This document shows positions 36,001 through 42,000 of a stretch of 64,000 nucleotides of DNA, piece after piece (the first letter of the stretch is position 1; every line of letters starts with the position of its first letter). Origin of the DNA: Bdellovibrionales bacterium. Lineage in GTDB: Bacteria > Bdellovibrionota > Bdellovibrionia > Bdellovibrionales > JAUICD01. Made by a program: the position numbers. The stretch covers positions 1,664,001 to 1,728,000 of the forward strand of contig OZ241865.1 in assembly GCA_965203275.1 (NCBI GenBank). The letters run 5' to 3'.

Positions 36001-39000
36001 TTTGCATCTTTAATACTATTTTGTGTGTATATCATTCAGATAATGATCAAGTCAAGAGGTTTTTTGAAGCTTTGTAAAAATTACATACATTTTTAGTATT
36101 ATGGTGTAAATAATAGCTAGCAAAGGGGAAAAGCATTGCAGTATAGAGTTATATTTTAGCTAGTGAGATCAACTTAATAACTGTCTGGACCACATGTATG
36201 ATTATGAGTACCTCTACACACACCCATCCTCTTATCCTTTTCTGTATATGTACAAGTTCTGGGTCCATCACTACTTACAGTACAGACATTTCTAGCTCGA
36301 CAACCATCTGTAGGTGCTTCGCATCTTCTAGTTGTACGAGAACAGAGTTCACTATCAGTATATCCTGCTTTACTACAAGTCCATGTCGTCTGTGTGATCG
36401 TATGCCTAATGAGATCATCCTCAATATCACAACTGATATTTTTTTTATGTCTATTACGCCTCTTACTATACACACCTCCATGACATTCTTTTCTTATTTC
36501 CCGAGTGTTTCTATTAACAGCTGAGCAGGGATAACCACATCCAAGATGTGGAGTATTACAAGTGCATTTTGGTTTAGAAGGCCCTGGTGTGTCGACAGCG
36601 ATACAACCGATACCATCGGCATTCTTAATATATCCATCCTGGCACCTGCGATTAAAGCATCCAGAGTCTGGATGCTGGTGGCATCTTGTTCCCGGTGGCA
36701 GTTTATCATTACAAGCACTTGCATTGTTATATTCACATGTTGATTCTGGTACAGTTATAGGGTCAGATACAGGATTAGATGAAGAAGAAGGTATAGAATC
36801 TCTATAACAACAATATTTCATAGGATGCGTCTTGTCTTTGATCTCCCATATATCTCTTGATGTTAGGCCAGGAGGCACGACATCTTTCCAACCGCCAGGT
36901 CCAGTTCCATATTTTTTTAACAATGCACAAGGTGTATTCTTTGATGTATTTGTAACCATAAAGAATTCTTTATTTCCATTTCCAACAGGTGGTGGTTTGT
37001 CCTCTGCTGCACGGCAAGTTTTGTGTTGCATCCAAAGAGGATGCTTTAATTTTTTCATCATTAGATTACAAGCATGTCCACAAGATGGATAACACACTCC
37101 ACCCACATCTCTAACATGGCATTGCAATGGAGTACCACAGGTTTTTGATGCACAATAATCACCTGAGCATCCATCACCGCAGGCTCCATGAGGATTATCA
37201 GGATCAATAGGTGAAGCAGTAGGGTCAGGCTTAGGCTTAGGAGGTTTAGGAGGTGATGACTTACTACATATAGGTTTTCTTTCGCTACATTTGTCTTGTG
37301 AGAAATGCCTACCCCCAACACCCTTAGTTCCACATCCTCCATTAGGAGTGCCACAAATTCCATTAAAGTTTATTGTACAGCTCCTCTTGCTACCTGGTGC
37401 ATAGATGGGATCACAATTACATTTCTTCATTGCTCCGGTTGGATTACCATCTTTATCTTTAACAGGACATTGCTTACAATTTCTTTCACCTACTTGGTTA
37501 CCTTTTACAGAACAAGGTTGACCTGCTTGACCAGCACATAAACCTTTATATTTTTTACGTGACCCACTTTCTGTCAATTGACAAGTATAACCTCCTTTAG
37601 AAAACTGACATGAATCATTTTGTTTTTTGCCATGGCATTTACTCGTTGGCCCTGTAACGCCACTAAAAGGTTTTGTTGCATTACAAGGAAGAGTGTAACG
37701 ACAATTATAAAGACCTAAAGGAGGGCAACCAGATTGTGAGTCTTGTTGATCGTTACCTCCACCTCTAGGGCGAATACACACATTTGAATGACGATTTTCA
37801 TCAACACATCGATATTTGTCCACACCACCGCAATCATCCTTATAACCATCGCAACATATTAAACCTGGCTGGCACTCCACATATTGACAAGAGCCTCCAT
37901 CCTTGCTTGGCTCTGCAACATATATTCCCCAGCCTCTATTCGTATCTTGACACTCATTGCCTCCGCAGACATGGTAATAGCGAGCTCCCATCTTTTGAGG
38001 ATTGCATCCATTAGAGTCACTGCCAACGCTATTGACAAACTGACACCTAATGATCCCACCATTGCCATCTGTTCTGGTCTTGTTACCATATTCCTTTTCA
38101 AAACAATCCATTGTATAATGTTTAGGAAACTTTCCTTCTGTTGTCTTTGCAGGTACTTTTGAATCAATCTCATAAGGAGCCTCCTGGTTAGTAAACCAAT
38201 ACAGATTGTTAAAATCTTTTGACTTAAATGTATTTGGCAAATCTGTATCCCATACAAGATCTTGCTTTACACCCACATCACAAATATCCTCAGGTTCAAA
38301 TATGACTGTTTGACGGCCATGGGTGATGCTTTGTAACTCACCCTGACAGATGCCAAGGTCCTGATCATTAGATGTGTTCACAATACCACTTAGAGGAACT
38401 TGCCCACTTCCATCCCTATGCTTACCTGTGATATTGCATTTTTCAAGATTATGAGTGAATTGATCCTCTTGTAAAGATTTGAATTGGACATTTTCTTGAT
38501 TGCATTGAATCCATTTATTCGAAAGAGAATTTGTGGGTAGTTGCCAGTTTGTAGACCTGTTTGCATGATAACGCCTACCCTTTCTACCATCACTGGGCCT
38601 GCCTACAGCATCATTTGTAATATCTCGTGAGTTAGAATCAATAGTAGGCCTTTTAGCGTCTATGTAAAATGAAAAAATATGCTTACTAGCAGATCTTTCC
38701 AATGTAGACACCTCTATCATTTCTAGGTCGTATCTTCTATTCTCCTGCAAATCATTGAAGGTCAATCTTAACTTATTGTTGGCAAGTAAACTAGCAGTTG
38801 TACTACCAGACTGCTGGGGAAACTTAAAATTATGACATCGTCTCCATTGTTCCATCTGAGGTGTACACCCTGTAGCCGTATGTGCTTTGTTTCTATTAGT
38901 GCCACTCACACATGCCATTGAAGCCCTACATAAAAGCAAGGTTGCTGCCTCCTCTTGACCGCCAGTGACTGCAAAATTGCCAAAATTCAAAATTGCTGTG

Positions 39001-42000
39001 ATATCATTGTAATCATTCCCATCTGTATCACAGGAGGTTTGCTTGCGAGCTGTATTGGGTAATAAATTCTTGTTGTGACCATTTACAAGTGATTCCACTG
39101 TGATCTGACGATGACCTAAATTCCCTGTTAAAGTCTTTGTCTGATGAGAAAATATTCGCATTGACTCACAAGACATCTCTTGACCATTTTTTTCATACTT
39201 GAGCTTGACCTTAAATTGAAATCCTAAATCATTGTTACCTAAATAATAAGAACGAAAATGATTATTAGATGATATCATTCGTTGAGTACTAGCAGGCGTA
39301 GACAATCTTGGACTTGTTAAAATCAACTTATGACTGGAATCACTTGGATGTCTTGGACAATTATACGTAGCTGTTTTAAATACTCCACCTTCATAATATA
39401 TTTTATAACAAGTTATATCGTTATAATTTTCTAGAAGCTCATTTCTGGGCAATCTCACTGGAGTGATTTTAATATAATAACTCATATTTTGTAAATTATA
39501 TTGTCGACGATACTTATACCACAAGCTATGCATCCTATCATCGGTGAGTGTAGATAAACTATCATCAATAACAAACTTTTTACCCAATCCATTATTGCCT
39601 TTAAAAAATTGAGGATCCTTATTATAAAGATATTGTAAAAAATTAACAGAATTAATTAATAAAACAGAAGATGAGCTTTCTAAAACCACTTGATTTGTAT
39701 TACTGACCACATTTACAAGAGGTATACCTGTATTGACCCAGGAAAGTGTAGGCATATTTTCATTCATTAAACTTTTGTATAGTTTTTTATAGTGATCAGA
39801 AGCAGGGATACTTTGACCTAGCTTCACATCTTCCCAATTTCCATCATCACCATAACTTGTACCAGATTTCGACTTAATAAAGAGAGGATTATATCCCGAA
39901 GCAGAATTTGTCGAAGAAATTTTATAACCATAAAGACGCGTTCCTAATGATACAACTCTATCAATAGCCTTTTTAGCTATCATGCTACACTGAGAATCTT
40001 GAGCAGTTGAACTCAAAGTTATCTTTGATTGAGTAAAGAAATAAGTGCTACTTACAGCAATAGTGGCTAAAAGACTCGCACCTACAAGTACTCCTACTAA
40101 GGATACTCCTCTTTGTTGAGTTAGATGATATTTAAAACTCTTAAGAAACATCGTGGATGGCCTCAATTTTTCAATAATTTCAATAATGGAATAAATGCAT
40201 ACTTTATTAGATTTATCGGATGATCTCTTTAAAAAGATAAATAAATCCTTAAGAAATCTTTAGCTCAAAATAATTTGACTCAAAATAAGACATAGTAAAT
40301 GGCAATTAAATTATTCTTCTTAAGAATATTTAGAGTATTTTTGATAGATGGCCGTCCGCTATCTAATGAAAAGATGTATATTTTGTTTAATATCCGGCCT
40401 TTGTTTAGATTCTGAAAATAAAATCAGTCTATATCGCATATTAACTTGGCATATATATTGCTTCCTAAAAGCTGTAAGTATTTTAAAGTGGATAACCTTC
40501 AACGAGATATTTTTAACGAGATATTAATATGTCGTGACATAAATATATATATAAACAATTTTATTCGGAGGTCATTATGAAAAGTCAAATTTGTGATCAA
40601 GTAACATTAAAACTTATTATAATTTTTATTTTTTTAGGGATGATAACGTCTGGATGTGATTCTAGTACAAAGCCTGAAAAACCACATCTTCCAAGTCAAC
40701 AAAGTCCAGAGGTTCAAGATATTCAAGATGTTTATGAAATCCACGAAACACCCAATAATACAGAGATAGTATCAGAAGTACCTACAGAAATTATGGATAT
40801 GTCAAAAGAATCTCCATTTGAAGAAGTTCCATTTGAAGAAGTGGTGATCAAAGAGTTCGAAGATACTAGTACAGAACAAAATACAAATTTAGAGCCTCAA
40901 AAACCTGATATTTCCTTTATTCAGGCTGTAGAGCAGAACAAAGTAGATACTATACAAAAATGGCTTGAAATGGCAACAGACCCTGATGCAAGAAACAGCA
41001 AAGGGCAAACAGCTTTGATCATAGCTGCTTGTCAGGGTTATATAGAAGCTACACAGATGCTTTTAAATGTAGGTGCTGATCTCTACTTAAAAGATCAGTT
41101 AGATCATTCAGCTGTGATGTGTGCTATTTCTAAGGATTATATTAATGTAGCCCGAATGCTTTTAGAGCATACAGAAAACCTCAACCTAGAAGTCAATGAA
41201 AGAGGTGAAAGCATCTTGATATGGGCTGCTCGCATGGGCTATGAAAGGGCTGTATCATTGCTGATTGAATTAAATCTTAATTTGAATATTCAAGATAAAT
41301 ATCATTATACAGCCTTAATATGGGCTGCCAGAAATGGCCATACAAAGGTAGCTCGTTTATTGATAGATGCTAAAGCTAATGTAAATGCACAAGATAATTC
41401 TGACAACACAGCACTAATGTGGGCAGCTTTTTATAATCACATAGAGATAGCTAAGATGCTTATAGCTAATCGCATAGATCTCAACTTAGCAGATGATCAT
41501 GCACACACAACTCCTTTGATGTGGGCTACTTTAAGAGATCATATAGAAATAGCTGAAATGCTTTTAGAGGCAGGGGCAGATCCTGTCCCTAGCTATCTAA
41601 ATACTTATACACCTCTTACATGGGCGGCTCTTAAAGGTTATAGCTCAAAAATTTCATTACTTCTTAAAGATGGTGAAGATCCTAACGTAAGGGATCAGCG
41701 TGACAGGATTCCTTTGCTCACAGCTATCAGAAAAAATACAACAGCAATCGTTAAACCTTTCATGGAAACAAACATAGATCTCAATGTGAAAGATGGAGAT
41801 GGTAATACTTTATTGATAAAGTCTGCCTATTATGGTCATACAGATATTCTTAAGATACTTATAGAAAAAGAAGTAGACCTCGATATTCAAAACAATGAGG
41901 GATACAACAATATAGGATACAGTGGATTGATGCAAGCTGTTCGAGGAGGTCATATAGAAGCAGTTAAGTTATTAGTGGAGGCAGGGGCAGATCCTTTTTT

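Follow-up and report, generated by a model that had tools for sequence, protein, structure and literature searches.

Giant type IV pilin-like proteins with exchangeable tips as candidate PilV/GspI-position subunits of a pilus tip in a Bdellovibrionales bacterium

The genome analysed here (G000), from an uncultured bacterium related to the predator Bdellovibrio, encodes six giant type IV pilin-like proteins that probably stand in for one another at the PilV/GspI position in the tip of a type IVa pilus, bearing adhesive cargo and, in five cases, switched by slippage of poly-C tracts in their leaders. One of them, P0001 (1,325 aa, 74 Cys), lies in the window, the whole 64,000-nucleotide stretch of DNA studied (Table 1). 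When all 4,626 of the genome's stop-to-stop ORFs were searched by BLASTP, exactly five full-length paralogs were retrieved, in agreement with the six copies counted by the first-pass annotation; these are 37-39% identical to P0001 over 1,060-1,320 aa (E=0), and in a tree P0001 is the most divergent of the six. All share one layout within mature lengths of 1,310-1,420 aa: a class III signal comes first, followed by a pilin domain (as predicted), three sandwiches of the Ig/FnIII type and a tail that is rich in disulfides and variable. The conserved body, previously put at ~600 aa, extends to ~residue 850 and is covered by no Pfam or NCBIfam model. The earlier view of giant modular pilin-like proteins with swapped tips is upheld by the signal, by a model that resembles a pilin and by tails of mosaic make-up.

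Table 1. The window gene P0001 and its parts (positions in the 64,000-nucleotide stretch), and its paralogs and the W-like and X-like genes (contig positions)
Feature	Position	Strand	Basis or remark
Giant type IV pilin-like gene, 1,325 aa (P0001)	36174..40151	minus	ATG at 40151 (ORF reading)
Basic class III leader, 15 aa, ending Arg-Gly (predicted prepilin peptidase site)	40107..40151	minus	
Codon +5, Gly instead of the family's Glu5	40092..40094	minus	
Alpha1 helix, mature 1-52, first ~21 residues hydrophobic	39951..40106	minus	model (helix 3-52)
Predicted pilin domain, mature 1-325: alpha1 on three-strand sheet (206-218, 294-306, 309-319), two large insertions	39132..40106	minus	
Ig/FnIII-like beta-sandwich 1, mature ~330-482	38661..39119	minus	
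Ig-like beta-sandwich 2, mature ~485-623	38238..38654	minus	
Ig-like beta-sandwich 3, mature ~626-730	37917..38231	minus	structural match
Conserved Cys-rich stalk segment, mature ~730-850	37557..37916	minus	near-invariant Cys
Variable disulfide-rich tail, Pro-rich linkers, 44 Cys in 476 aa	36177..37556	minus	
Cys module (HGAC...PSCG) in tail	37050..37190	minus	common to 4 other paralogs and two lipoprotein-like proteins
Tail segment	36789..37121	minus	~70% DNA identity to 601-kb paralog, partly to 1405-kb paralog
Cys module common to 1109-kb and 1392-kb paralogs instead	36567..36734	minus	32-36% vs 12-21%
Paralog (601-kb)	601654-605916	minus	
Paralog (799-kb)	799067-803401	minus	
Paralog (1109-kb)	1109781-1113818	plus	
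Paralog (1392-kb)	1392526-1396617	plus	
Paralog (1405-kb)	1405823-1410319	minus	
Sole W-like (PilW/GspJ-like) gene of G000	1514644-1515732		
Sole X-like (PilX/GspK-like) gene of G000	651842-652774		

The class III signal is a constant of the family, with Gly-1 present in all 39 leader-bearing homologs and Glu5 in 38, the five paralogs having both; Glu5 also occurs in all 12 proteins called from a +1 Met. The G/MGLVEML start (the slash follows Gly-1) ascribed to the giants does not extend to the window gene, which reads G/VSLVG and is the only leader-bearing homolog lacking Glu5. Absence of this residue is described as a mark of PilK/PilX (PMC13533445), and P0001 is still compatible with a pilin since K-type pilins also lack it, while conservation in 38 homologs points to selection for assembly. 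Blindness of the Pfam N_methyl model, another early claim, holds for hmmscan of P0001, which gave no match, but not for the genome search, where two of the six giants (22.1 and 21.2 bits) reach the cut-off of 21.2 bits. Remote members match N_methyl/GFxxxE, with PilV, GspI and ComGE below cut-off; against the PilV/GspI models TIGR02523 and TIGR01707 they reach 17-24 bits, compared with curated cut-offs of 52 and 44, and P0001, P0002 and P0011 do not match either model.

Modelled alone, the pilin domain has a single continuous alpha1 helix (residues 3-52, pLDDT ~80-90); the split helix noted previously appears only in an 845-aa model, in a region with pLDDT <50. Pilins account for 12 of the top 50 hits among 48,161 chains compared with this domain, including GspI and the XcpV/XcpW and EpsI/EpsJ entries, in which the short chain was assigned as the I subunit by length. 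Beyond the pilin domain, ICAM-2 and titin give tandem matches across mature residues 485-730 of P0001. It could be argued that the helix is a mere membrane anchor and that the giants are periplasmic or membrane scaffolds or sensors that never enter a fibre, as the lack of Glu5 in the window copy and in at least three of the 15 remote members listed, and the burden that such size places on secretin passage, would suggest. This we regard as highly unlikely, however, given the near-invariance of Glu5 in close homologs, the adhesin-type, fast-changing tips that also occur on lipoproteins and the occurrence of PilY1 adhesins of 1,500-3,500 aa on pilus tips (PMC13533445).

Judging from gene context, the giants are probably the PilV/GspI-like component of a V/W/X trio found across the order, a component multiplied only in this genus. 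The family, first reported as 33 homologs of 734-1,875 aa with weak traces in 2 of 29 other genomes, now comprises 63 close homologs of 730-1,881 aa and, by profile search, 87 clusters of up to 2,816 aa, with members in 48 of 151 genomes of the order; the estimate of about eight loci in the sister genome (G001) was accurate. Outside this genus the counterpart is single-copy, often of 500-1,000 aa, and in relatives it adjoins two pilins, one with Glu5 and of ~270-340 aa, which scores 0.96 to PpdB/PilW clusters, the other Cys-rich and without Glu5. A W-like gene occurs in 47 of the 48 family-positive genomes versus 14 of the other 103, and adjoins the giant gene in 21 of those 47, eight of the 21 not having been used as seeds. 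W and X are adjacent in 35 of 37 genomes, the exceptions being G000 and G001, in neither of which trio synteny was seen; G000 combines six giants with a single W and a single X. As a member of this trio the family is thus broader and less exotic, and its mechanism more specific, than originally claimed. The giants might instead be non-core modular minor pilins, similar to Streptococcus sanguinis PilB, that act alone, either capping type IVa pili or inserting into them, with the W/X pair having another partner. We consider this rather unlikely, as it is opposed by the tight co-occurrence and adjacency with W and X, and by scans of G000 that revealed no other PilV-like candidate outside the type II secretion system (T2SS) operon.

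In support of the pilus-tip reading, the genome contains two pilus/T2SS extension ATPases, PilT-like ATPases, two PilC/GspF, four secretins and prepilin peptidase (two Peptidase_A24 genes), names assigned from Pfam family matches and gene context, and a pilM-P-like operon adjoins one giant paralog. The trio could instead form the tip of a dedicated secretion-like pseudopilus, or employ the T2SS or Tad machinery, so that the giant is pushed to the surface or set free and no retractile adhesive pilus is involved. In keeping with this proposal, the closest folds include T2SS pseudopilins, secretins are numerous, and among the 27 remote homologs scanned, three have a potentially self-cleaving Hint domain at their end. 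The T2SS, however, has its own separate GspG-K operon (contig 19-23 kb), the signals are type IVa-like and not Flp-like, and 33 PilA-like genes indicate an active type IVa system, so that a pseudopilus seems decidedly unlikely. The most likely arrangement is that the six giants take turns on one common pilus tip.

The giants differ in their tails. The vWA-like tip of the 799-kb paralog is common to three lipoproteins, as previously reported, at 56, 55 and 47% identity (72, 69 and 68% at the DNA level). Its assignment as a MIDAS vWA domain is retained as a prediction from the DxSxS motif, present in all four copies, and from weak profile matches to Pfam VWA_3 (E 0.026), VWA (E 0.072) and the NCBIfam Bdellovibrio MIDAS adhesin (E 0.011; the match of P0067 to the Bdellovibrio MIDAS model, at 9e-7, is also weak); a sequence search for a solved relative of this tip found none. 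The 1405-kb paralog, for which the first-pass annotation had noted lipoprotein Cys repeats, carries two copies of the four-Cys repeat of lipoproteins, and the 601-kb paralog carries one. The two lipoprotein-like proteins that have the HGAC...PSCG module of P0001 are stand-alone and of ~160-180 aa. The tail of P0001 is itself a mosaic, because neighbouring modules match different paralogs (Table 1), and the later part of segment 36789..37121, which matches the 601-kb and in part the 1405-kb paralog, is missing from the other three paralogs. In the sister genome, two copies share 99.3% identity over 1,326 codons, beyond which their tails differ.

Tracts of C16-C19 lie in the leaders of five of the six giants, 60-78 nt before codon +1, and account for five of the 12 C/G runs of at least 16 in the genome. 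The report of five starts behind poly-C was correct in this respect, the window gene having no tract. An upstream ATG is in frame for the C16 and C19 copies and out of frame for the C17, C17 and C18 copies. As in contingency loci, these five genes have near the start of the coding region a long homopolymer that determines the frame. Neisseria PilC1/PilC2 carry a G-run in the signal sequence. Orthologs in other assemblies, on contigs that do not distinguish them from paralogs, have other tract lengths at the protein level (four Pro versus six), and one is in frame where the G000 copy is out of frame.

We propose that alpha1 anchors each giant in the inner membrane, that prepilin peptidase would cleave after Gly-1, and that the mature protein would form a priming trimer with the sole W-like and sole X-like pilins, as gene context suggests. 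The three predicted Ig-like domains and a Cys-stapled stalk would keep the variable tip, whether disulfide-rich modules or a MIDAS vWA, off the fibre, where it may mediate adhesion and would probably serve to recognise prey, host or matrix surfaces. Judging from the sharing seen in sequence, recombination may supply the tips from a pool of modules that surface lipoproteins also use. Slippage of the observed tracts would turn five copies on and off, and therefore cells would differ in which tip is available to them. Lacking the switch, the window gene may be a constitutive default. PF05567 (PilC/PilY1) matches neither P0001 nor the five paralogs, which have a class III signal instead of a Sec signal peptide. 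It is possible, although we put this forward only tentatively, that PilV has taken over the tip-adhesin role of PilY1 in about a third of Bdellovibrionales, and that in this genus the system has become combinatorial, one PilW/PilX pair serving six to eight giant, poly-C-switched PilV proteins whose tips are refreshed from a library shared with lipoproteins. If so, a phase-variable repertoire for prey or host recognition would reside inside the pilus priming complex itself.

Currently, surface recognition by Bdellovibrio-type predators is still largely open, and a review consulted states no function for their type IVa tip (PMC12428579). This study proposes a three-protein tip, lacking a database model, for roughly a third of the order. 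Since the trio is a single-copy three-gene cluster in the complete 3.9-4.3-Mb genomes G131, G151 and G125, deletion and tip-swap tests would be possible should these strains be cultured. The model also entails that the I-position subunit carries cargo and that tips are swapped through one subunit alone, subject to phase variation. Neither was found in the literature consulted, nor did a literature search find a description of this giant pilin family.

The design itself is known from modular pilins and swappable Kil tips, and the giants are an undescribed variant of it. Similar to the PilI-PilJ-PilK tip initiation complex (PilV-PilW-PilX; GspI-GspJ-GspK), the trio in relatives combines two Glu5 pilins with one Glu5-less pilin, a predicted I-like fold core and synteny (PMC13533445). 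Large cargo is known there on PilY1 or the K-like subunit (GspK, CpaL; PMC13533445), whereas here 200-2,400 aa are fused to the I-like subunit, and six I-like paralogs, with scattered genes, would have a single J and a single K between them. S. sanguinis PilB (vWA) and PilC likewise graft C-terminal adhesive modules, including a MIDAS vWA, onto a pilin module (10.1101/2021.01.27.428410), and in the giants three Ig/FnIII domains, Cys modules and, in one, the vWA-like tip follow the N-terminal pilin module. The giants are, however, about three times longer than PilB (454 aa), with an Ig stalk, Cys modules, an enlarged pilin domain and a paralog set with frameshift tracts; that they far exceed described modular pilins, as first stated, agrees with the 860-aa protein given as the extreme case by domain count (10.1101/2021.01.27.428410). 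The Myxococcus Kil (Tad) pilus, from a predator-related lineage, similarly fits one pilus type with alternative disulfide-rich tips that have variable distal domains; its four interchangeable Tips are exchanged as whole trimers from separate gene clusters (PMC12075869), whereas here one subunit alone would be swapped, within a type IVa-like trio and by way of slippage switches. Neisseria PilC1/PilC2 are, as proposed for the giants, redundant tip adhesins under phase variation (PMC13533445), but PilC is not a pilin, has a beta-propeller and exists in two copies rather than six. In Bdellovibrio, MAT fibres resemble the giants in pairing a conserved carrier with variable tips (PMC12428579), although they are trimeric and lack a class III signal. 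Finally, the lipoproteins Bd0875 and Bd1483 carry a MIDAS domain (PMC11003981), whereas here one putative MIDAS module is found on both a pilin and lipoproteins.

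The first-pass annotation proposed a six-member family of giant pilin-like proteins, which was borne out by comparing the window ORF, using BLASTP, with the full set of 4,626 stop-to-stop ORFs in the genome (2.57 Mb, 35% G+C). Five full-length paralogs, named here by contig place (601, 799, 1109, 1392 and 1405 kb), display 37–39% identity to the window protein, which has no match in Pfam or NCBIfam. Mature lengths of the paralogs are 1,310–1,420 aa with a Cys content of 46–76, and the sister genome of the same genus contains eight loci of the family. The start ascribed to all six, G↓MGLVEML (arrow, prepilin cleavage site), is present in the other five paralogs after leaders of 60–67 aa, but not in the window gene, which starts G↓VSLVG, without Glu5, after a 15-aa leader lacking poly-C. 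A search with residues 1–700 returned 63 proteins of 730–1,881 aa, rather than the 33 of 734–1,875 aa previously listed, and 12 of these begin too late for the signal to be judged. Gly occupies −1 in 39/39 leader-bearing homologues and Glu +5 in 38 of them, while 12 further homologues called from the +1 Met all have Glu5. At the level of sequence this conservation is that of a predicted class III signal. That Pfam N_methyl misses the family is true of four paralogs; the other two reach the cut-off in the genome search, as do nine of 27 further homologues scanned. It could be argued that this end of the protein is a plain membrane anchor, a reading we regard as very improbable.

Features of the window and of the 601-kb locus
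Feature	Coordinates	Strand	Remark
Giant pilin-like ORF	window 36174-40151	-	1,325 aa from ATG at 40151
631-aa secreted protein, HExxH motif	window 34063-35958	-	downstream of window gene
Giant TPR protein, 1,066-aa unknown, MotA/ExbB and two ExbD genes	window 44952-54587	+	
601-aa protein	window 54670-56475	-	weak astacin match, E 0.003
Three PilA-like genes in a row	window 58150-58857, 59300-59950, 59969-60559	+	motif
Spare copy of last Cys module of 601-kb paralog	contig 601419-602024	-	second frame overlapping paralog's end; 53% identical

The C-terminal tips have been exchanged. As had been claimed, the 799-kb paralog matches the ends of three lipoproteins over its C-terminal 350 aa (47–56% protein and 68–72% DNA identity), and the join to the body is sharp; the assignment of this tip as a MIDAS vWA domain is less secure, comprising a DxSxS motif and weak profile matches. 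P0002, a homologue from another assembly, has the same architecture. A four-Cys lipoprotein repeat occurs in 2/6 paralogs and 8/128 homologues, and a second Cys module in 5/6 and 13/128, respectively, and in two small stand-alone proteins. The body of the window gene is equally distant from all five paralogs, and on alignment the gene is a mosaic: mature residues 1025–1110 are similar only to the copies at 601 and 1405 kb (40 and 35% versus 7–15%), and residues 1125–1180 only to those at 1109 and 1392 kb (32 and 36% versus 12–21%). Two copies of the sister genome share 99.3% identity across 1,326 codons and diverge thereafter. Two near-identical sister-genome copies with different tails (L032 and L033) lie ~27 kb apart in opposite orientations, and both have a transposase-like gene nearby; tips could be exchanged by an inversion between the two, or, alternatively, the assembly may be collapsed here. 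Three of 27 remote homologues scanned (P0089, P0104 and P0117) have a Hint/intein-like domain at the C-terminus, suggestive of self-cleavage or of an exchange of tails. The overlapping-frame Cys module at the 601-kb locus is possibly a silent or readthrough tip.

The genome contains 30 C/G runs of ≥10 (0.12 expected), including 12 of ≥16, and five of these 12 sit 60–78 nt before codon +1 of the five other giant-pilin genes, confirming an earlier observation. An upstream ATG is present in all five, in frame with the C16 and C19 tracts and out of frame with C17, C17 and C18. Orthologues in other assemblies have four prolines versus six, and one of them is in frame whereas its counterpart here is not, although the comparison is at protein level and assumes CCC codons. 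At least three consecutive Pro occur in 8/39 leaders, five Lys in 2/39, and a C19 tract in 1/8 sister-genome genes. Contigs from four sequencing runs included tracts shortened by one and by two bases, although such tracts fit the paralogs; on/off states are uncertain because of assembly error in homopolymers. Many of the 25 further runs of ≥10 (for example, contig 593063, 1381438, 1670213 (window 6213), 2061039 and 2203619) sit at the 5' end of further paralogous genes of surface type (700–1,430 aa), likely a genome-wide set of contingency loci. A paralog of the HExxH protein (contig 36541–38430) has a C10 run upstream.

Contrary to the reported rarity of the family (2 of 29 other genomes), 48/151 genomes of the order match a wider profile (E up to 1e-8), as do 11/201 of the phylum, all 11 inside the order; at E up to 0.001 a profile search yielded 87 clusters. 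Outside the genus there are mostly one to three matches per genome, often of 500–1,200 aa, with at most six candidates scored per genome and the weakest matches covering only the N-terminal part. At 18 loci of relatives the giant gene (V, PilV/GspI-like) often adjoins a Glu5 pilin of 270–340 aa (W), scoring 0.96 to PpdB/PilW clusters, and a Glu5-less Cys-rich pilin (X, PilX/GspK-like). Among the 151 genomes W occurs in 61 and X in 37, W being present in 47/48 V carriers versus 14/103 non-carriers; as the genomes are related and 13 seeded the profiles, we give the p-value no weight. More telling is patchy joint presence within single genera (both in 4/19 of one genus). V lies ≤6 kb from W in 21/47 genomes, eight of which are not profile seeds, and W adjoins X in 35/37, the sister genome and the present one being the two exceptions. 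Alongside its six giants the present genome carries a single W and a single X. In a midpoint-rooted tree (20 rows, seven sister-genome copies included) a 100/99 branch separates the six from the sister copies, and thus the gene expanded separately in the two species; the five poly-C genes form a clade that excludes the window gene.

At nine relatives' loci (L074–L077, L080, L081, L083, L084 and L090) the trio often adjoins glycosyltransferase- or membrane sugar transferase-like genes, making pilin glycosylation possible, or a split spermidine-synthase-like pair. At contig 654–660 kb, just downstream of the X-like pilin, are at least nine tandem small genes encoding a membrane helix and coiled-coil repeats. 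A ~150-bp intergenic repeat (>100 BLASTN matches) downstream of the 799- and 1392-kb paralogs may drive scattering of V, W and X. PilA-like paralogs number 33 by motif, among 42 N_methyl matches, a very large major-pilin expansion. The TPR–MotA/ExbB cluster, which has a counterpart near contig 2126–2133 kb, resembles a gliding-motility (Agl/Glt-like) cluster.

Components of type IVa, type II secretion (T2SS) and Tad-like systems are all encoded in the genome. In PMC13533445 a PilI–PilJ dimer is described as recognising the Glu5-less PilK and so priming the fibre, the three genes being almost always syntenic, and PMC13190605 gives the base-to-tip order FimU, PilW, PilV, PilX, PilY1. We consider it fairly probable that the giants interchangeably take the PilV position in a type IVa pilus tip, carrying adhesive cargo and switched by poly-C slippage. 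One giant would occupy each pilus, its Ig and disulfide stalk would hold the adhesive module outward, and slippage would set which giants are available. That they are instead non-core modular pilins seems unlikely, and that they belong to a secretion-type pseudopilus slightly more so.

Modular pilins are an established class of >1,200 proteins and 264 architectures, vWA grafts among them (10.1101/2021.01.27.428410); the giants fall within its definition and would work likewise. Interchangeable tips have been demonstrated for the Myxococcus Kil pilus (PMC12075869), and B. bacteriovorus has known adhesins of the variable-tip and MIDAS kinds (PMC12428579, PMC11003981). The passages of PMC6060248 consulted do not describe the trio, and the family appeared in none of the papers searched. 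As the giants are below curated PilV/GspI profile cut-offs, we term them PilV-like rather than members of that family. Each principle has precedent; what is unusual, and testable, is the combination of cargo on an I-like subunit with six paralogs to a single W and a single X, frameshift tracts, and modules common to lipoproteins.
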